Source: Candidatus Thorarchaeota archaeon (GTDB taxonomy: Archaea; Asgardarchaeota; Thorarchaeia; Thorarchaeales; Thorarchaeaceae). From it: a stretch of 64,000 nucleotides of DNA. Below the pieces are notes generated by a model. It was not told the DNA's origin, made no database searches, and was given only the letters and a program-made list of their open reading frames with translations. A program made the translations under genes and the position numbers. Below, piece by piece: positions 36,957 to 59,981 of this stretch. Each line of letters begins with the position of its first letter. The stretch's first letter is position 1. The stretch spans positions 128,001 through 192,000 of the forward strand of contig DXJO01000010.1 in the NCBI GenBank assembly GCA_019057475.1, in the 5' to 3' direction.

Positions 36957-38306
36957 TCAGGAGGTCTTCTGAACTCCTCGTTTGCCCACACATCTATACT
37001 CGAAGCCCTTGGAGGTAACAATTTCCTCATCGAACACATTCCGCCCATCAACGATGATTGGTGTTCGCATTATTTTCTTGACCTTATCCAAGTCCAAGGA
37101 GAAGTATTCAGCATGCTTGGTAACAAGCACGAGGCAGTCTGAATCCTTGGCTGCTTTCATGATGTCCCTCTCAATCTCAAGTGGTCCGAAATCCCACTCC
37201 CTCACAAAGGGGTCGTGGAGTCGCACCTCTGCTCCCTTCGCCTGTAATGAGGCAATCAGAGGAGCGGCAGGTGTGTTCCTCGTGTCATCTGAGTCCTCCA
37301 GATATGCGCCGCCCAAGACTGTTATTGTAGCACCACGAAAGGCCACCCCTTTGGCGTACAGCGCATTCTCAACAAGGTTCGCCATGTGTACTGGCATGTG
37401 ATCATTGATTCTCCGGGCCAGCGATATGAATTCAGGCTCTAGCTTCCAAGTCCCGTACTCGTATAGCCCATAACGCAAGAGCCACGGGTCCTTTGGAAGA
37501 CAATGTCCTCCAACACCTGCACCGGGGGTGTGCATCATCCTATCGTGCCGTTTGTTAATTGCATTGATTATCTTGTAGATATCAACACCCAGACTCTCGC
37601 ACACGAGCGCCATCTCATTTGCGAATGCAATATTCACGTCGCGATAGGCGTTTTCTATGGTCTTGGAAAGCTCCGCACTGAGAGTATCTAGGGTGGTGAT
37701 GTCCTCCTTGACTATCTTGGAATAGAGCTCTACTGCTCTCTCGGTGCTCCGGGGGGTGATTCCACCCACTACTCGAGGCATGTTAACAATGAACTCTATC
37801 AGTTTGCCAGGCATGACTCTCTCGTATGAGAAGGCTAGGTCGAAGTCCTTGCCACCCTTGAAGCCTGACTCCTTCTCGATAATTTCTTGCACAACATTCT
37901 CAGTGGTCCCCGGCGCAACTGTAGATTCCACAACCACAAGAGCTCCTTTCTTGAGGCGCATACCGATGTTCTTGCTAACTTCCCGGAGGGACACGTACTG
38001 AGGCATGTTCTGCTGGTCAGTGGGTGTCTGCACGTCGATTAGGATGATGTCTGCATCTTTGAGCACTTCGATGTCATCAGTGACCTTGAAGGTTCCCTTG
38101 GCCACAACTTTGGCAATCAGCTCATCCAGTCCCGGCTCATCACCCTCGAATGGGGACTTTCCACTATTCAGTACGTCTATTTTCCAGCCGGACCTCTTCG
38201 ATTTTCGCTGAAGTCCTGTGACTTGAATTCCCTCAACGTCAGCCAGTAGGGCCGCGCAGGGGATGCCAACATATCCCATCCCGACAACTACGATGTTCGT
38301 GACCAT
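36957..38306 (-). CDS. Nucleotide-sugar dehydrogenase (UDP-ManNAc/GlcNAc 6-dehydrogenase, WecC-like), paralog 1
   Basis: GMGYVG, ESTVAPGTT, ERVMPG, ENAYRDVNIAFANE, PGAGVGGHCLPKDP. Confidence 0.9.
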   Translation of the reverse strand: MVTNIVVVGMGYVGIPCAALLADVEGIQVTGLQRKSKRSGWKIDVLNSGKSPFEGDEPGLDELIAKVVAKGTFKVTDDIEVLKDADIILIDVQTPTDQQNMPQYVSLREVSKNIGMRLKKGALVVVESTVAPGTTENVVQEIIEKESGFKGGKDFDLAFSYERVMPGKLIEFIVNMPRVVGGITPRSTERAVELYSKIVKEDITTLDTLSAELSKTIENAYRDVNIAFANEMALVCESLGVDIYKIINAINKRHDRMMHTPGAGVGGHCLPKDPWLLRYGLYEYGTWKLEPEFISLARRINDHMPVHMANLVENALYAKGVAFRGATITVLGGAYLEDSDDTRNTPAAPLIASLQAKGAEVRLHDPFVREWDFGPLEIERDIMKAAKDSDCLVLVTKHAEYFSLDLDKVKKIMRTPIIVDGRNVFDEEIVTSKGFEYRCVGKRGVQKTS

Positions 38307-38461
38307 TAGAAGCTACCTTCCTCAATGTGAACCTAATGTCGTTCTTTCCGTGACAGAGGCCCCTTCTAGTTTGTTAAAAGGCTTGCTTTGAACCCGGAGT
38401 TGCACTGCGATTCATACAAGGCTATGCATCATCTGTAATGCCGGTCTAGGTGAGAGCGTGC

Positions 38462-39814
38462 TCATATGACGTGCTTGGCGCCAGACTTCCCGACGCAACG
38501 ATACTCGAATCCCTTGGACTCGACCTTCTCTCGGTCGAATACGTTTCGGCCGTCAACAATCGTCGGAGTTCTCATCGTGTTCTCCATCTTGTCAAGGTCA
38601 AGCGAGTAGTATTCCTTGTGTTTCGTGACTAGTACAAGACAGTCCGAACCTTCAGCAGCCTTCATAATGTCTCTCTCAATCTCCAAGCTATCAAAGTCCC
38701 ACTCCCTCACATGTGGATCATGCAGGCGCACTGTTGCTCCTTTGGCCTGAAGTGACGCAATTAGGGGCGCTGCTGGTGTGTTTCTTGTATCATCTGAGTT
38801 CTCGAGATACGCTGCACCCAAGACGGTGATTACTGAGCCGTGAAGCCGAACTCCTCTTGCGAGCAGTGCATTCTCCACCAAGTGTGACATGTGGATTGGC
38901 ATATGGTCGTTGATTCGCCTAGCCAAGGAGATAAATTCTGGCTCGACTTTGCTGGAGCCATACTCATGGAGTCCATGTCTCAGCAGCCATGTATCTTTTG
39001 GCAGACAATGTCCTCCAACTCCTGCGCCCGGAATGTGCATGTTTCTGCTGGCAAGCACATTAACCAGTTCAATAATTTCGTAGACATTCACTCCGAGGCT
39101 CTCGCAAACAAGCGCCATCTCATTTGCAAATGCAATGTTCACGTCGCGATAGGCGTTTTCTATGGTCTTGGAGAGTTCAGCCGTTAATACAGTTGTTTTG
39201 AAGATCTTCTTCTTTACAATCTTCGAATATATCTTAACGGCTCTATCAGTGCTTCGCGGAGTGATTCCACCCACTACTCGAGGCAGGTTAACGATGTTGT
39301 GGATGAGCTTTCCAGGCATCACTCGCTCATAGGAGAATGCCAGATCGAAGTCCTCGCCCGCCTTTAGACCTGACTTGTCTTCAATGATGACTTGAACTAT
39401 GTTCTGTGTCGTACCCGGTGCCACAGTCGATTCAACGACAACAAGAGTGCCCTTTTTCATGTGTTTGCCAATATTCTCGCTCACTTCACGCAAGGAGCGG
39501 TATTGGGGAGTATGTTTAGCATCAGTCGGAGTCTGAACATCAACCAGAATGACCTCTGCAGTTGAAAGCACATTGATGTCATCAGTCACTCTGAACGTTC
39601 CCTTTTTGACAACCTTTGCTACGAGCTCATCAAGGCCCGGCTCATCCCCTTCAAAAGGCGATTTTCCGCTGTTCAGTACATCTATTTTCCAGCCGGACCG
39701 CTTGGACTTCCTCTGCAGTCCCGTCACGTCAAACCCGTCAACATCAGCCAGTAGGGCCGCACAGGGTATTCCTACGTAACCCATTCCAATTACGACGATC
39801 TTTGTTGTCATCAA
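38462..39814 (-). CDS. Nucleotide-sugar dehydrogenase (WecC-like), paralog 2
   Basis: Same motifs; closely similar to 36957-38306. Confidence 0.9.
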   Translation of the reverse strand: MMTTKIVVIGMGYVGIPCAALLADVDGFDVTGLQRKSKRSGWKIDVLNSGKSPFEGDEPGLDELVAKVVKKGTFRVTDDINVLSTAEVILVDVQTPTDAKHTPQYRSLREVSENIGKHMKKGTLVVVESTVAPGTTQNIVQVIIEDKSGLKAGEDFDLAFSYERVMPGKLIHNIVNLPRVVGGITPRSTDRAVKIYSKIVKKKIFKTTVLTAELSKTIENAYRDVNIAFANEMALVCESLGVNVYEIIELVNVLASRNMHIPGAGVGGHCLPKDTWLLRHGLHEYGSSKVEPEFISLARRINDHMPIHMSHLVENALLARGVRLHGSVITVLGAAYLENSDDTRNTPAAPLIASLQAKGATVRLHDPHVREWDFDSLEIERDIMKAAEGSDCLVLVTKHKEYYSLDLDKMENTMRTPTIVDGRNVFDREKVESKGFEYRCVGKSGAKHVI

Positions 39815-44905: not shown

Positions 44906-45034
44906 TGAAGCGATAACGCTACCGTCTTATCTCTTGCGTGTCACGCCGTCAGACTTATGAACCAAGCTCATTGCCTCGTATCAATCAACCGATTAACTGC
45001 TAGACGCGGGCAGGGATGTCTGATGATTTCACAA

Positions 45035-45222
45035 CCGTTCATTGTAAGTTGGACAAACTTTGACAGGGAGTCTTTGTCCTCCCAAGAGCGGCACTGGGAA
45101 TATACTCCTTGAGGTCATTTTCCTGTCATTCAACCTCAAGAAACAGTGTCATGATTTGAGCATATAAGGTCGTATTCGAAAATGTCCAATATCATCCAAG
45201 TTTTGAGCAGCTGTCTGCAACC
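45035..45222 (-). mobile_element. Miniature non-autonomous element B sharing both ends with the tnpB element
   Basis: rc 45183-45222 aligns ungapped with tnpB-element left end 57588-57627; rc 45035-45097 matches tnpB-element right end 59860-59919; GG at both junctions. Confidence 0.85.
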
Positions 45223-52033: not shown

Positions 52034-52066
52034 GTGCAAGACACACCAGTTCTCCATTGATTGGGG

Positions 52067-52346
52067 GGCATGCAACAGCTGCCAAGAACTTGTACAATCC
52101 TGGACATTTTGTAGGTGTTTAAAACATACTGTTCAGGATTGAGTGGTGTGGATGTTCAATGCAGATTGCTAGGACCTCCATGCGATTTGGTCGCCGCCAG
52201 TTGGACGGAGACAGAAAACGCCTGTGGAGAGGACGTGAGACTTGTCGCAGATCCAGTAGGATCTGCAGAGCAGACCTCAATGAATCAGGAACCGAACATC
52301 AGTCAAGGACATTGCTGTCCAAGATTGTGCAAGTTTCGGGCAACGG
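52067..52346 (+). mobile_element. Miniature non-autonomous element C with the same end architecture
   Basis: Left end 52067-52106 and right end 52316-52346 align ungapped with the ends of elements A and B and are imperfect inverted repeats of each other; GG at both junctions. Confidence 0.78.
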
Positions 52347-53861: not shown

Positions 53862-55385
53862 GTGATGACTGAAATAATCTTGGCGTTGGATGTCGGAACC
53901 ACCGGAGTGCGCTCTTTGGTCTTTGACACAGAGGGTGCAGTTCTCGCGCGAGCCTACAAAGAGTTCGAGAGTTCCTATCCCAAGCCCTCCTGGGTGGAGC
54001 AGAATGCGCAAACCTGGTGGGACACTGCCTGCGTAACAACCAAGCAATGCCTCAAAAACCCGGGTGTCAGCGCTGAGAGTATCTGTGGGTTGAGCGTGAC
54101 TAACCAACGTGAAACGGTCGTTCCAATCGACGATGCTGGTAATCCACTACGTAGTGCCATTGTGTGGCAGGACCGTCGAACTGTGCCCCAATGTAACTGG
54201 ATTCGAAATGTCATGTCGCCGGCTGATGTCTATTCAATCACTGGGCTCACCATTGATCCGTACTTCACCGCTCCCAAGATTCTCTGGATAAAGGAGAACG
54301 AGCCTGAGGTCTTCAGAAAGGCTTGGAAGTTTCTCTTGGTTCACGATTTCATGGTCTTCAAGCTCACTGGTAAAACAATTACTGACCATTCCAATGCAAG
54401 CAGAACGATGCTTTTCGACATCAAGAACGCAGGGTGGTCTGAAAAGATGCTCAACGCATTTGACATCCCGCGTGAGAAGCTCCCTGACCCTCTGCAGTCT
54501 GGTACCCCCGCAGGAGAAGTAACTGCGAAGGCAGCCAACGATTGTGGGCTTAAGGAAGGCACTCCTGTGGTTGCGGGAGGCGGAGACCAGCAGTGTGCGG
54601 CGCTAGGAGTGGGTGTGGTTCGCGAGGGCTCAATCAAGTCAACTACAGGAACAGGTACTTTCCTGCTTGCCTACTCTGACACTCCCAGATTCGATAGCAG
54701 AATACGCGTGCTCTGCAGCCGCCATGTTGTCCCGGGCGCCTTTGTTGTGGAGGCAAGCATGTTCACCACGGGCTCAGCTCTCAGGTGGTTTCGCGATAAC
54801 CTTGGTGCGGAGGAGTGCAATCTTGCCAAAGAGCGGGGCGTTGATCCCTATGAGGTCATGTCGGAAGGGGCGGGCGCGATTCCAGCTGGTTCTGAAGGTG
54901 TCATCCACCTGCCGCATTTCGCAGGGGCTGGTGCACCCTACTGGAATCCACACGCGCGTGGTGTGTTTGCCGGTCTTGCCCTTGGCCACACTAGAAAGCA
55001 TCTCATGCGATCTATCTTGGAGGGCGTTTCTTATGAGATTAGAACCAACCTCGAGATCATGAACGATATTGGGATTCCTGCCTCAGAGGTTCGCGTGACT
55101 GGAGGCGCTGCCAGAAGTCAAGTGTGGATGCAGATACAGGCAGATGTGCTTGGAATGCCAGTAATCCGAACCGAGATGGAAGAGGCTACCGCTCTAGGAG
55201 CCGCAATCCTTGCCTGCAAAGGGGTGGGTTTGTTTGACTCGATGGTAGCAGCCGCTGACAGCATGGTGAAACCATTGGATCCACTTAAACCGCAAGAAAC
55301 GAATCGCAACGTCTACGCCGAAGGATTTGCGCGGTTCAAGCAGCTCTATGCTTCAATATCCAACATCGAGTGGCCTAGCCATTAG
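53862..55385 (+). CDS. xylB: FGGY-family carbohydrate kinase (xylulokinase-like)
   Basis: ALDVGTT, WVEQ, NQRET, WQD.R, ASRTML, GGGDQQ, GTG, LEG, GGAARS. Confidence 0.88.
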   Translation: MMTEIILALDVGTTGVRSLVFDTEGAVLARAYKEFESSYPKPSWVEQNAQTWWDTACVTTKQCLKNPGVSAESICGLSVTNQRETVVPIDDAGNPLRSAIVWQDRRTVPQCNWIRNVMSPADVYSITGLTIDPYFTAPKILWIKENEPEVFRKAWKFLLVHDFMVFKLTGKTITDHSNASRTMLFDIKNAGWSEKMLNAFDIPREKLPDPLQSGTPAGEVTAKAANDCGLKEGTPVVAGGGDQQCAALGVGVVREGSIKSTTGTGTFLLAYSDTPRFDSRIRVLCSRHVVPGAFVVEASMFTTGSALRWFRDNLGAEECNLAKERGVDPYEVMSEGAGAIPAGSEGVIHLPHFAGAGAPYWNPHARGVFAGLALGHTRKHLMRSILEGVSYEIRTNLEIMNDIGIPASEVRVTGGAARSQVWMQIQADVLGMPVIRTEMEEATALGAAILACKGVGLFDSMVAAADSMVKPLDPLKPQETNRNVYAEGFARFKQLYASISNIEWPSH

Positions 55386-55594
55386 GTCGAGTAGATAGCT
55401 AGCTTGTTACCCTTGTCCAAGACAAGTATCTTCACGTCTGGATCATTGGATATCCACTCGTCGACTGCAGCTTGTGGGTCCTCCGCCTTGTCCATGTGCG
55501 CTTTTTCTACGGTATCTATGTCGAGATTTGTGAACATCTGAATGCCTCAAAGGACTTCTAAGAGATCAGCGAATTTGTGCGCTTTGTGCTCGTA
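55382..55594 (-). pseudogene. Diverged duplicate of the larA 3' end with an in-frame stop
   Basis: Colinear 212-bp match to 56261-56472; encodes YEHKAHKFADLLEVL*GIQMFT...DKGNKLAIYST*. Confidence 0.9.
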
Positions 55595-56259: not shown

Positions 56260-57546
56260 CTAGGTCGAGTAGATAGCTAGCTTGTTGCCCTTGTCCAAAA
56301 CAAGTATCTTCACGTCTGGGTCATTTGATATCCACTCATCGACCACAGCTTGTGGATTCTCCGTCTTGTCTAGGTGAGCCGATTCTACGGTTTCTCTATC
56401 GAGCTCTGTGAACATCTGAATGCTTGAGAGGTTTTTCAGAAGCTCAGCGAACTTGTACGCCTTGTGCTCGTACAGATGATATTTCCCGCTTATCGACTCT
56501 ATCACAGTGTCAAGTGGAGCAGTCAACTTGTTGTAGAAATTCTCCATTGCACTCTCAGGTGCTACACCATCTCTGCACTCAGCAAGAAACAGAATCTCTC
56601 CTCCTTCTGACACTGCATTCTTAGTGAGTTCAAGTGCTCTCTGGGCATGATACAGGCTCTTGTCTTGGGGGTAACCTCCTGGGGACACCACAATGCGTGG
56701 TCTGGCGGTTACAGTGAAGCTTGCCGTTTCATCGAGCACCTTAATGCCATCAGATATCACTGGCTCCATGCGGCCGGCGCCAGCCCACACTACTTTGTCG
56801 CCATTCGATACGGTTGAGAGAGTGAAGATCGTAGCACCCTTGGTTATCATCTCAGCCGCTTCTCTCATGTCATCCGCGAGTGGGTTGGTTCGCCTTGCTG
56901 GGTCTGGGTGGTATGGATGCGTTCCGAAGGTCGACTTGGGGTCAAGTGCCATTGAATGATTGGCTTCGATTGATGCAAACCCGCACACTCCTGGCAAGAA
57001 GTCCTTGAGAGCATTGGAGTATCCACTGAAGTAATGGGCCTTCATATCAGCAAGAGGAACGTACACATTGTGACCGACGGCAGCGGCGTTAACAATGACT
57101 GGCGTACCTCTGCTTGTTTTCCCCAAGTCAGCCATGTCCGGTTCTTGGCAATCATGAATCTTCACTTTGTAGTTCTCAAGCCCGGCATCAGCAGACGCTC
57201 GTTTGATCATGTCCACGATTTCTAGGTTCCCGGGGTGTTCTACTTCGTGTGACCCGGTTGTGACTATGTACTGGATTCTGTGTGCATACTTCAGTTTTGG
57301 GGCAACCGAGCTGAGGAGTGCCCAATGAGGCTCGTCTCTAGTATGGTCCTCCACCAAAACGCAGACACTCCTGCCCTTGACGATATCCGTCAGAGCGGGT
57401 CCGTATGGGTTCGCAAGGACCCTGTTGAGTTCCTCTAGACTATTTTCTGCAGTCCTGGCTTTCTTCGGCGCGACTGTTCCAGCGAGGTTCTTTTCAGGAA
57501 TCTGCAAGTCAACAGTTCCTTCGCCGTAATTTAGAGTCACTTTCAT
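56260..57546 (-). CDS. larA: Nickel-pincer-dependent lactate racemase (LarA) family
   Basis: D.TR, TGSH, G.TSRGTPV, H.FSGYS..K..LPG, NH, SPGGYP.D..LY, AEC.DG. Confidence 0.88.
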   Translation of the reverse strand: MKVTLNYGEGTVDLQIPEKNLAGTVAPKKARTAENSLEELNRVLANPYGPALTDIVKGRSVCVLVEDHTRDEPHWALLSSVAPKLKYAHRIQYIVTTGSHEVEHPGNLEIVDMIKRASADAGLENYKVKIHDCQEPDMADLGKTSRGTPVIVNAAAVGHNVYVPLADMKAHYFSGYSNALKDFLPGVCGFASIEANHSMALDPKSTFGTHPYHPDPARRTNPLADDMREAAEMITKGATIFTLSTVSNGDKVVWAGAGRMEPVISDGIKVLDETASFTVTARPRIVVSPGGYPQDKSLYHAQRALELTKNAVSEGGEILFLAECRDGVAPESAMENFYNKLTAPLDTVIESISGKYHLYEHKAYKFAELLKNLSSIQMFTELDRETVESAHLDKTENPQAVVDEWISNDPDVKILVLDKGNKLAIYST

Positions 57547-57587
57547 CCTGGTTGCCTCAACAACTGGATGGAACAGTCTTTGAAAAG

Positions 57588-59919
57588 GGTTGCCAATAGC
57601 TCCAAGAATCTTGGACAGACTTGGACACTTATTAGATAGTCGTCTGATGAAACACTTTTTGTGGAGTTTGAATTCTATTGCTGTTAGCTATTATAGCCCT
57701 AATTCTGTATGAGTTAATATTCTTCATCTAGGACCACGTTTTGAGGTAGTGGTTGATGAAGTCAGAAAAGCGGCGTCGTCCCCGCTCGTGCAAGACACCC
57801 GAGGCATCGAAACAGAAGACAATGGACGCCAACTATTATGGCTCTTCATCAACTACTTACCTTGTAGAGTCCTTTGCCCTGAACTCCTGTCAACGCGAAG
57901 TAGCACGAAAGGGAAGGGGCAGAGAACCCGACCCCGCGTACAGACGAGACAGGGATAGTTGGACACAGCAGCTAGTCAGTGTAGCAAGAAAGTGTGGGAG
58001 AAAGGTCGACGACATAGACCTAGCGACTCTCACTCTACATTTTGATAACTATGTCAAGGTTGTCAATCTCATCCTCTCACGGATATACCGGACGGATGGC
58101 CGCGCACAGACACTTGGGGAATCACTCTCGAAGTATAGAGGCAGAGCTTACACTCTGCTAAGAGAGCAGAGAGACCTTTGCTATCAACACAATGATGAAT
58201 ACAAAGAACTAGTGTATGAACGACTTCATCGAAATGCGCTTGAGCATGCCGGCAGAACACTGTTGGCTGATTGGACGCGGAGGCAACTCTTCAATGCTGC
58301 GATCAATCTGCTTCACGGGTCACATGATGATGCTCTACGACTTCTGAGAAGAAAGAATATTCCCTCGGACTTGATTCGAAGATTGCGGGACAGTTGCAAT
58401 GCAGTGAAGAAGAATGGTTCCGGATATCATTACGCTCTTAGTGTTCTAAGGCAGATTCGTCTTACTCTTGATAGTCATATTCTAGATACTCTCAGTATCA
58501 AGATCAGTTGGCGTGGAAGACAGAGGAAGAAGGTGTCTTCCTTACTTGCAAAGGGGTCTCCAGACTTTCAGTATGTCGAGAACCTTGTAGAGAACGAGCT
58601 CCGGAGCTGGGCAAAGAATGGATACTCTTTCACCGTCCCGCAACTAAGAAGCCTCAGTCTTGATTTCAGCGCAAGCACTGAGAACTCCATAGGTCAGGGA
58701 TACTGGTTCACTATTGATTCAGAGAGAGAGAATGAGATCATGCTGCACCTTAAGCTTCCTCCGGGGATAGATGGAAGAGAACACAGTGATTCCCCCTACA
58801 AGTCAAAGACCCTGACCTTCAGATTCCTTGACTGGTTGCCAAGAGCTGCGGCAAAAGATGCTGATAAGGCAAACAGAGCTGAGGAGACCGGTGACTATCA
58901 TCGAGGTGACCAGTTGAGGTTCAGAGCTGCAAAGTTCTCAGACATGCATGAACAACTCATGAACACCATTCAGTTCCAGCAGGTGGTTCATAGACTATCA
59001 AGGCTGAAACAAAGGAAGAGGAGTGATTCTACAGAGATTGCAGACCTAGAAGCAAACGCCCAGAGACTCAAGAGCTCCCGACGGAGTGCTCCTCCAAGAC
59101 TTCTCTTGAGAGGGCAGAGGGTCATCCTCCAGATTCCCTTTCTCTCGCCCAACGGTACAGTGAGCTCCAGAGTCCTAGGAGAGAGAGAATACACGACCAA
59201 GGCAGGAGCTGATAGGGGATTAAGAGTACCAGTTGCCCTCTCGGTTGAGAAAGACACCGAGTATGTAGACCTGTACATATCAGTAGAGTCCCTCATTGCG
59301 AAGAGGATGACACTGAGGAAGAATGCGTCGGTCCTACAGTCAGAGGTGGACAGGAGAAGAAACAACTGGGAGCGAAAGCGGCCCGGACAGACTTATCCCC
59401 GGTTCCTCTTCAAGAAGATGAGGCATCTGGAAGCCACATGGAAGAAGGTACGTCGTCTCGACCGCGAGATTGCTCGCATTATTGCATCAAAGACAGTGTG
59501 GTTCTGTGAAGGCCATCGGGTGAAGAAGGTGTTCTTCGAGGACCTGCGGAGCTTCCAAGCTAAAGGTGGTCTTAGGGACCTGTCGTGGTCGCTGAATACG
59601 AACCTGTGGGGAAAGATCATCGACACGGTCAGATACATGCGAGAGTCTCTTGGTCACTCACCCTATAGTGTGTGGACTGTGAACCCGCGGTACACTAGCC
59701 AGACATGCCATGTCTGTGGCGAGAGAGGTGTCAGGGTTGAGAATGAAACCTCGAAGACAAAGAAGAAGGGAGGAGAGTACTTCTATTGCGAAAAGTGTGG
59801 TTCTCATTTTCACGCTGATATAAACGCAGCAAGAAACATAATTCATGTTCAACCAAGATCCAGTGCCGTTCCTGGACGGACAGCTTGATGTCCAAGTTTG
59901 TCCAAATTACAATGAACGA
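57588..59919 (+). mobile_element. Element A: IS607-like, transposase-less element carrying a giant TnpB-like nuclease
   Basis: Inverted TTGGACA-N3-TTGGACA ends (57611-57627 / 59889-59905, 16/17 match); ends shared with elements B and C. Confidence 0.82.
57753..59888 (+). CDS. tnpB: RNA-guided RuvC nuclease, TnpB/Cas12f-like, 711 aa
   Basis: RuvC-I GADRG, RuvC-II FFEDL, VNPRYTSQTCHVCG...CEKCG zinc ribbon, RuvC-III HADINAARNI. Confidence 0.9.
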   Translation: MMKSEKRRRPRSCKTPEASKQKTMDANYYGSSSTTYLVESFALNSCQREVARKGRGREPDPAYRRDRDSWTQQLVSVARKCGRKVDDIDLATLTLHFDNYVKVVNLILSRIYRTDGRAQTLGESLSKYRGRAYTLLREQRDLCYQHNDEYKELVYERLHRNALEHAGRTLLADWTRRQLFNAAINLLHGSHDDALRLLRRKNIPSDLIRRLRDSCNAVKKNGSGYHYALSVLRQIRLTLDSHILDTLSIKISWRGRQRKKVSSLLAKGSPDFQYVENLVENELRSWAKNGYSFTVPQLRSLSLDFSASTENSIGQGYWFTIDSERENEIMLHLKLPPGIDGREHSDSPYKSKTLTFRFLDWLPRAAAKDADKANRAEETGDYHRGDQLRFRAAKFSDMHEQLMNTIQFQQVVHRLSRLKQRKRSDSTEIADLEANAQRLKSSRRSAPPRLLLRGQRVILQIPFLSPNGTVSSRVLGEREYTTKAGADRGLRVPVALSVEKDTEYVDLYISVESLIAKRMTLRKNASVLQSEVDRRRNNWERKRPGQTYPRFLFKKMRHLEATWKKVRRLDREIARIIASKTVWFCEGHRVKKVFFEDLRSFQAKGGLRDLSWSLNTNLWGKIIDTVRYMRESLGHSPYSVWTVNPRYTSQTCHVCGERGVRVENETSKTKKKGGEYFYCEKCGSHFHADINAARNIIHVQPRSSAVPGRTA

Positions 59920-59940
59920 TATCAGTTTTGGTGTATCACT
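59859..59940 (+). ncRNA. Predicted omega-RNA 3' scaffold (to ~59919) plus flank-derived guide
   Basis: Block conserved in element B; hairpins TCCAG/CTGGA and GGACA/TGTCC; loop CGTTC complementary to terminal GAACG. The 5' start is not determinable. Confidence 0.6.
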
Positions 59941-59981
59941 TGTGCAGAATGCTTATCCGTTCTTGATGTTACAGCAGAAGC

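Follow-up and report, generated by a model that had tools for sequence, protein, structure and literature searches.

In ISDra2, whose TnpB has been examined by cryo-electron microscopy, the guide RNA (omega-RNA) covers the 3′ end of tnpB and the right end of the transposon and takes its guide from the flanking DNA; bases -6 to -2 of this RNA form pairs with the stem-1 loop (bases -102 to -106), and a guide-adjacent pseudoknot of the ISDra2 type is common to Cas12 guide RNAs (PMC10097598). In ISFba1, pseudoknots are essential to the scaffold of the right-end RNA (reRNA; RAGATH-18), and the TnpBs of IS607 elements use G-rich transposon-associated motifs (TAMs), AGGAG and GAGGG (PMC11061315). Asgard TnpBs linked to Cas1 homologs (Cas1H-Asgard-1/-2) were reported by Altae-Tran et al. 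(PMC10691335). The subject of the present analysis is element A, a ~2.3-kb unit with a single gene, encoding a TnpB-like nuclease, in a 64,000-nt stretch of contig DXJO01000010.1 of a Candidatus Thorarchaeota archaeon (the window; coordinates are positions in it, + strand unless stated otherwise). With a probability of roughly 85%, positions 59857-59919 form the right end of an IS607-like transposon and at the same time the 3′ scaffold of an omega-RNA serving a TnpB-family nuclease. A right end of this kind, with a compensated hairpin, a terminal pseudoknot and a flank-derived guide, had been proposed in a preliminary description of the window, in which scaffold and pseudoknot were correctly picked out from the raw sequence alone; the gene, the covariation, the element boundary and the ISDra2 precedent agree with that proposal.

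Element A shares with ISDra2 (i) the predicted origin of the guide RNA, from the tnpB 3′ end across the right end, with a flank-derived guide, (ii) a pseudoknot between guide-adjacent scaffold bases and the loop of an upstream stem, deduced here from sequence alone, and (iii) the RuvC D-E-D triad and zinc finger. It differs in the size of the protein (710 aa versus 408 aa) and of the scaffold (~62 constrained nt versus 116 nt), and a search of this genome for Y1 TnpA gave no match. Whereas ISDra2 inserts 3′ of a TTGAT-type TAM and has left-end and right-end hairpins, element A is found at RGG|GT and has double-stranded-type ends with sub-terminal inverted repeats. The likeness to ISFba1 lies in a serine recombinase (MerR helix-turn-helix (HTH) plus resolvase, encoded here not in A but in a related element on contig C53 of the same genome), in the G-rich sequence 5′ of the left end (here RGG), in the absence of a target duplication and in the pseudoknot. 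However, no RAGATH-18 match was obtained here even at E ≤10; the ISFba1 reRNA, with its 187-nt scaffold, lies wholly outside the ORF, whereas the much shorter scaffold of A takes in the last nine codons; and element A resides in an Asgard archaeon and encodes a protein nearly twice as large. As in stand-alone omega-RNA/PATE-like derivatives, copy B and a 13-copy family (T2) retain ends and scaffold without a gene and would need TnpB in trans, but the copies described here carry a TATA-like box and an ORF-derived 5′ hairpin. Cas1H-Asgard-1/-2 resemble element A in that they, too, are Asgard TnpB homologs with a transposase context out of the ordinary, conserved sequence downstream of tnpB and a guide-like stretch that varies; unlike in those systems, a search for Cas1 gave no match in this genome, their downstream motif (GTTCACTCA past the hypervariable stretch) is missing here, and no place in their scheme was found for the present family. 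Judged by these features, the locus is a known kind of system, a divergent, large archaeal TnpB with a guide-RNA scaffold and many gene-less derivatives, and it leaves the known picture of TnpB function unchanged. What is added is an abundant Thorarchaeota TnpB family without an Rfam model, for which the ends, the RGG|GT target and an alignment ready for covariance modelling are now defined. The pairing of a large TnpB with a ~62-nt scaffold could be of interest for compact guide designs, and could bear on how Cas12-sized proteins traded RNA for protein.

Covariation and boundaries of the right end

Pairs in three helices (Table 1) were counted in an alignment of 58 distinct right ends, comprising copies from the same genome and 42 from other metagenome-assembled genomes (MAGs); 31 further right ends, taken from other genomes, were aligned to the covariance model as a second set. 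Controls consisted of 500 shuffles, which ignore phylogeny, and of sliding the pairing partners. In the first set, 89% of cells were paired and 14 pairs were altered on both sides. None of the 500 shuffles attained any observed measure, and pairing fell to 29-51% when the partners were slid by 1-3 columns. The covariation of all three helices was reproduced in the 31 right ends, so that the check across homologs proposed in the preliminary description came out in favor of the structure. Relatedness alone is an unlikely source of this signal, given the outcome of the slide control and the many pair types.

Hairpin 1 was paired in 99% of cells of the first set. Its closing pair is U-A in 41 right ends, C-G in 16 and G-C in one, and its loop-proximal pair occurs as G-C, C-G, G-U and A-U, which is repeated in the second set. 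The earlier observation that this stem is kept between element A and copy B (see below) is correct: the latter contains TCCCAG-TGCCGCTC-TTGGGA, with an extra C-G pair and G-U in place of G-C, and 7 of the 8 loop positions are identical, as can be read directly in the sequence.

In hairpin 2, whose inner stem in A is GCTTG/CAAG, double-sided changes were found in 8 of the 10 pairs (e.g. pair 24-53: G-C in 45 right ends, U-A in 7 and C-G in 3). A short hairpin of GGACA with the proximal TGTCC had been suggested for A, B and copy C. The motifs are present in all three (59878-59903 in A), but the proximal partner was rejected: it is the distal TGTCC that covaries with the GGACA arm (GTAC/GTAC in the 215-bp family, GCACA/TGTGC, GGGCA/TGCCC, GGGTT/AACTCC), the motif forming the base of a longer hairpin, and C belongs to a different family. 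The interior of hairpin 2 varies in length and keeps its self-complementarity (GCCTG/CAGG, CAGAGT/ACTCTG, CTTAGAC/GTCTAAG).

The pseudoknot helix (alignment columns 10-15 and 65-70) is 93.4% paired in the 58 rows and 95.6% in the 31 rows. Its distal pair (15-65) is C-G in 33 right ends, U-G in 10, G-C in 7, U-A in 5 and A-U in 2, with one cell unpaired, and two compensated changes are present at locus L066 (CGCTA/TAGCG). The perfect complementarity of the loop bases CGTTC (59867-59871) to GAACG (59914-59918), pointed out in the preliminary description, was confirmed. That this pairing is compensated is evident from the other genomes, but not from the comparison of A with B, which contains a C.A mismatch. 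Covariation with the loop extends to the base that follows GAACG (pair 10-70: C-G 41, U-A 6, U-G 4); therefore, the junction dinucleotide belongs to the scaffold. On the tnpB strand, G.U cells outnumber A.C cells (77 versus 45 and 36 versus 21), which moderately supports an RNA read in the tnpB direction. In the window, the covariance model identified element A (E 3e-22) and copy B, and nothing else.

Different copies have unrelated flanks, sequence conservation ending precisely where the element does. As deduced from empty sites, element A comprises 57590-59917 plus the junction dinucleotide GA (59918-59919), with the junctions AAAAG-GG-TTGCC ... GAAC-GA-TATCAG; its empty site in five congeners reads ..TTGAAAAGGATTAAC... 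It is a recent, polymorphic insertion.

Table 1. Positions of the features of element A, its copies and its relative on contig C53.
Feature	Position	Strand	Remarks
Left-junction GG dinucleotide	57588-57589	+	end of RGG target motif
A left end	57590-57660	+	TTGCCAATAGCTCC..CTTGGACAGACTTGGACAC..; tandem TTGGACA, inverted repeat of right-end TGTCCAAGTTTGTCCAA
TnpB-like nuclease gene	57756-59888	+	710 aa from ATG; ORF call opens at TTG 57753
A right end, predicted scaffold	59857-59919	+	conserved; covariation, codon constraint, empty-site boundary
Hairpin 1	59859-59876	+	TCCAG (59859-59863), loop TGCCGTTC (59864-59871), CTGGA (59872-59876); overlaps last codons (SSAVPG)
Pseudoknot 5′ strand	59866-59871	+	CCGTTC in hairpin-1 loop; pairs with 59914-59919
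Hairpin 2	59878-59903	+	GGACAGCTTG / CAAG-U-UUGUCC; outer stem uses distal TGTCC (59899-59903); RNAfold
Linker	59904-59913	+	AAATTACAAT; single-stranded, conserved; AAT invariant in 58 right ends
Pseudoknot 3′ strand	59914-59919	+	GAACGA; last six scaffold bases
Element terminus and junction	59917; 59918-59919	+	GAAC ends 59917, then junction GA; empty-site comparison
Predicted guide	59920-59939	+	TATCAGTTTTGGTGTATCAC; flank-derived; first non-conserved sequence past scaffold
Flank segment, 36 bp	59920-59955		inverted versus empty site; bracketed by GAAC-GA and TC-CGTTC (59956-59962)
Copy B	45035-45222	-	gene-less mini-element, ~188 bp; covariance-model match E 1e-18
Copy C	52063-52346	+	other gene-less family, same end style; approximate boundaries; unmatched by right-end model
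C53 relative, MerR-HTH (HTH_17) + Resolvase gene	L078 742-1275		177 aa; just inside left end
C53 relative, uncharacterized ORF	L078 1344-6812	opposite	1822 aa
C53 relative, TnpB-like gene	L078 6995-9286		763 aa; then right end

Nuclease, insertion sites and transposition type

The sole Pfam match in the nuclease is PF07282 (Cas12f1-like TNB domain, E 1e-15). The NCBIfam model guided_TnpB scored 60.7 bits against a cutoff of 100 and Cas12f2 was likewise sub-threshold (residues 480-697); the protein is therefore a divergent family member. The RuvC residues D487 (GADRG), E596 (FFEDL) and D689 (HADINAARN), as well as the zinc-finger CxxC pairs C652/C655/C679/C682, are invariant in an alignment of 16 homologs, and the triad and both CxxC pairs are retained in paralogs. 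Approximately 480 aa precede RuvC-I. Foldseek analysis of an AlphaFold2 model (mean predicted local distance difference test score, pLDDT, 71.7) gave matches along the whole length to Cas12f, the TnpBs of ISFba1 and ISDra2, Fanzor2 and other Cas12 proteins, with Cas12f, TnpB and Fanzor2 on top (E down to 3e-10). Sequence and predicted fold identify the 710-aa protein as a nuclease of the TnpB/Cas12 fold whose catalytic triad is intact. More than 200 homologs of ~700-720 aa were identified; all those with a named source come from MAGs of Candidatus Thorarchaeota or Promethearchaeota, which places the window in an Asgard archaeon. Copies 93% identical to A occupy other loci in congeners.

Empty sites were found for A in five genomes of the same genus and for B in four (..CGAATGGTTGTGAAATC..; B junctions AAAG-GG-TTGCAG ... 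GAAC-GG-TTGTGAAATC), and 12 further empty sites, all RGG|GT, are present in the genome of the element's own host for insertions in congeners. In 14 empty/occupied comparisons, insertion had occurred at ..RGG|GT.. with no target duplication, although the crossover dinucleotide cannot be fixed from the sequence. The left flanks of the mini-element copies are GG-terminal in 12 of 13 cases. The GG at the left junction of A is a candidate for either a TAM or a crossover core, and RGG, more generally, is a candidate TAM.

An exact 17-nt tandem (TTGGACAnnnTTGGACA) occurs at both ends of A in inverted orientation (57611-57627 on the + strand, 59889-59905 on the - strand), overlapping in part the 3′ arm of hairpin 2; we read it as a pair of putative sub-terminal recombinase sites. 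The left-end module of A was also found separately in congeners (query 687-759). A search with a simple left-end motif gave no match at most foreign loci, because the left ends are modular and diverge faster than the right ends. In the 93%-identical orthologs of A (L019/L020 = G005:C17, G006:C107), similarity to the window begins only at 57655, and the 70-nt left-end module (compared region 57586-57658) stands alone elsewhere in the same two genomes.

Element A contains no transposase gene. A search of the 96%-complete genome for Y1 TnpA (PF01797) was negative, whereas six control genomes were positive, and a search for Cas1 (PF01867) gave no match in this genome. Membership of the IS200/IS605 family was rejected, as the negative Y1 TnpA search of the 96%-complete genome and the nature of the ends, which carry inverted tandem repeats instead of single-strand hairpins, argue against it. 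Element A fits the IS607 pattern in several respects, namely the absence of Y1 TnpA and Cas1, the inverted tandem ends, the G-rich site without duplication and the serine recombinase on contig C53, the sole linked transposase found.

This recombinase belongs to a candidate autonomous or composite relative of A (L078:683-9291), consisting of a left end, the recombinase gene, an 1822-aa ORF, a TnpB-like gene and a right end; joint mobility of these parts is conjectural. Its left end opens with 12 nt that recur past its right end (GTTCCGTAACTG). Such a repeat, seen at contig C53, was rejected as a general trait.

Gene-less copies, guide segment and flank inversion

In the 3.34-Mb genome (56 contigs), 22 copies of the right end were detected: four beside TnpB-like genes (50-60% mutually identical), 13 gene-less copies of ~215 bp, three of the ~188-bp type of B and two others. 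The gene-less copies, 84-97% identical among themselves, are not unconserved pseudogene debris, and at least 17 of them retain the scaffold module, including hairpin 1. The 25-nt tail occurs twice in the window, compared with an expectation of 0. The covariance model gave more than 700 right-end matches, often at contig ends; of 41 searched genomes from the same family, 30 contained such matches.

Copy B is composed of a left end, the TATA-like CCTTATATG, a 5′ hairpin (CTTGAGGT/ACCTCAAG), hairpins 1 and 2 and the tail GAAC-GG, so placed that its guide would open at 45034 (minus strand). In the mini-elements, a TATA-like box (TTTATATAG or CCTTATATG) lies ~25 nt upstream of the 5′ hairpin, the stem of which is compensated between types (TGAGGAA/TTCCTCA, CTTGAGGT/ACCTCAAG, GAGGTT/AATCTC). 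This hairpin goes back to ORF sequence flanked by the two CxxC pairs, its source being the GAGGT..ACCTC stem (~59735-59765); the mini-elements therefore arose by internal deletions within the archaeal lineage. A longer scaffold reaching into the ORF via the same GAGGT..ACCTC stem was considered and rejected, since full-length copies show neither consistent compensation nor synonymous constraint there.

Copy C has ..GCAACAGCTGCC..TTGTACAATCCTGGACA at its left end and GGACATTGCTGTCC..GCAACGG at its right end, and contains GGACA (52307-52311), TTGC and TGTCC (52316-52320). Its internal RNA is different, with a strong hairpin (GCAGATCC-AGTA-GGATCTGC) and the tail ..GCAACGG.

The sequences 3′ of the tail are unrelated among 18 copies of the same genome and 47 foreign right ends, and at 12 empty sites they are collinear with host DNA. 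The guide of A had been placed from 59920 onward, in agreement with the junctions obtained from the empty sites. It had further been proposed to target the empty donor site. It does match the empty allele, but on the opposite strand, where it is preceded by ..GAGCGGA and not by the left flank of A itself; the reason is that 36 bp are inverted here. Between the same outer flanks, this segment has the opposite orientation in all five congeners (G001, G003, G004, G005 and G006; reference L070:2180-2235), and the TC-CGTTC that bounds it is an inverted near-copy of the right-end terminus GAAC-GA. In this one case, insertion at AAAAG-GA-TTAAC followed by inversion, with recombination between the right-end junction and an inverted GAGCG-GA on the other strand, would reproduce the arrangement exactly. 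Flank inversion as a general feature was rejected, as it was absent from 12 other empty/occupied pairs, three more being uninformative. It is an unlikely idea that the recombinase of the element inverts DNA between GAAC-GA and TC-CGTTC, thereby supplying a new guide without moving the element, and that an unusually short scaffold of ~62 nt with a 710-aa TnpB represents an intermediate between TnpB and Cas12. If true, guide switching by inversion would be a mechanism not described for TnpB elements.

Three paralogous TnpB elements from three genomes (L010:1590-1712, on contig C54 of the same genome; L034:3671-3793; L032:3674-3740) have in common, where the guide would lie, a 16-nt sequence (AGTGGCTTAGCnAG) similar to the 5′ portion of tRNA-Lys(CTT); the rest of the spacer differs. 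An oppositely oriented tRNA-Lys(CTT) gene lies 46 nt from the end of both L010 and L034, and in L032 a truncated tRNA-like remnant, with no tRNA called, occupies the corresponding place. At L036, a tRNA-5′-like GCCGGTGGCTAAGTCAGG directly follows the right end. The TnpBs of L010, L034, L032 and L036 retain the D-E-D triad.

The following mechanism may be envisaged for element A. A transcript would include the end of tnpB and continue beyond the element boundary; hairpins 1 and 2 would form, and the last six scaffold bases would pair with the loop of hairpin 1, placing an H-type pseudoknot directly 5′ of a guide whose first base is 59920 and whose sequence comes from the flanking DNA. The TnpB-like protein is expected to bind this scaffold, with formation of a ribonucleoprotein and probably RNA processing. 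The complex would then cut DNA in which the left-flank motif (~RGG) is followed by a guide match, that is, the vacated or empty site, and recombinational repair would restore the element (homing). Gene-less copies such as B, in which a TATA-like box precedes the same scaffold, would depend on protein supplied in trans.

Alternative explanations of the right-end conservation

The hairpins and the loop/tail complementarity might instead be DNA-level sites of an IS607-type serine recombinase, with no guide role. Inverted tandem TTGGACA motifs are found at both ends, CCGTTC..GAACGG can formally be regarded as an inverted repeat, the related C53 element encodes MerR-HTH and resolvase domains, and the 36-bp inversion is bracketed by GAAC-GA/TC-CGTTC as though the terminus were a recombination site. 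However, a protein-bound repeat does not predict C-G, U-G, G-C, U-A and A-U at the key pseudoknot pair, nor an interior of hairpin 2 that is variable in length yet self-complementary. Moreover, wherever tested, the family of the adjacent nuclease uses RNA with such a terminal pseudoknot, and the DNA and RNA roles are not exclusive, as the end must serve both. A purely DNA-level function is, on balance, quite unlikely.

Even less probable is that the RNA is made but that this copy has been co-opted, with a fixed guide, as a regulator or host factor and not for homing. The shared 16-nt guide-position sequence of the tRNA-Lys(CTT)-adjacent paralogs in three genomes is what would be expected of immobilized TnpB derivatives. 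Element A, in contrast, is a recent insertion, polymorphic and empty in five congeners, with an intact catalytic triad and a unique flank, and its 93%-identical copies lie at other loci in congeners; co-option of A is thus very unlikely.

The contribution of the protein sequence was assessed with 32 codon-aligned homologs. Synonymous variation is normal along the last 250 codons and vanishes in codons 252-256, with one codon per residue; synonymous sites are frozen solely in the last nine codons, where Ser, Ala and Pro each have one codon, and the C-terminal peptide shifts as the stem covaries (e.g. SSAVPG to PTAVGG). The need to keep the RNA pairing thus overrides codon choice, and the restriction of the freeze to the last nine codons delimits the constrained scaffold of full-length copies to ~62 nt, from ~59857. 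That the conservation reflects coding (C-terminal SSAVPGRTA) plus an ordinary terminator hairpin after the stop codon is barely credible: the last nine codons do contain hairpin 1, the consensus of 16 homologs shows a conserved tail and hairpin 2 comes after the stop codon, but the frozen synonymous sites, the peptide that changes with the stem, the gene-less copies of the same genome that keep the module, the pairing of the loop with the last bases of the element, which has no role in a terminator, and the lack of a T-run past hairpin 2 all contradict it.

Several observations weigh against the interpretation of 59857-59919 as an omega-RNA scaffold. About 6% of pseudoknot cells are mismatched, chiefly C.A at pair 13-67, including B and the closest orthologs, and the strand test based on wobble counts is only moderately asymmetric. 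An Rfam scan of the whole window at the gathering score gave no match, and at E ≤10 the region 59600-59980 yielded two chance long non-coding RNA matches and no RAGATH-18. The constrained ~62 nt are fewer than in the solved omega-RNA scaffolds (116 nt in ISDra2, 187 nt in ISFba1), so that essential parts may lie elsewhere or have been missed, and no conserved promoter is visible within the ORF of full-length copies. Finally, the bases of the right end must also serve the recombinase, so that their conservation is partly DNA-level.

Other repeats are present in the window that are unrelated to element A. A 212-nt pair of direct repeats (55383-55594 and 56261-56472), 84% identical, is associated with a LarA-like gene (56260-57546), one copy overlapping its 3′ end and the other located just upstream of it, and a ~1.5-kb tandem duplication, 69-85% identical, occupies 36982-39805. 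In another locus (L026:1464-1533), the start of a different TnpB-like ORF is directly preceded and overlapped by a hairpin-1-like sequence (CATCCAGTGCCATTCCTGGAGG), which may be a remnant of the 3′ end of a neighboring element.

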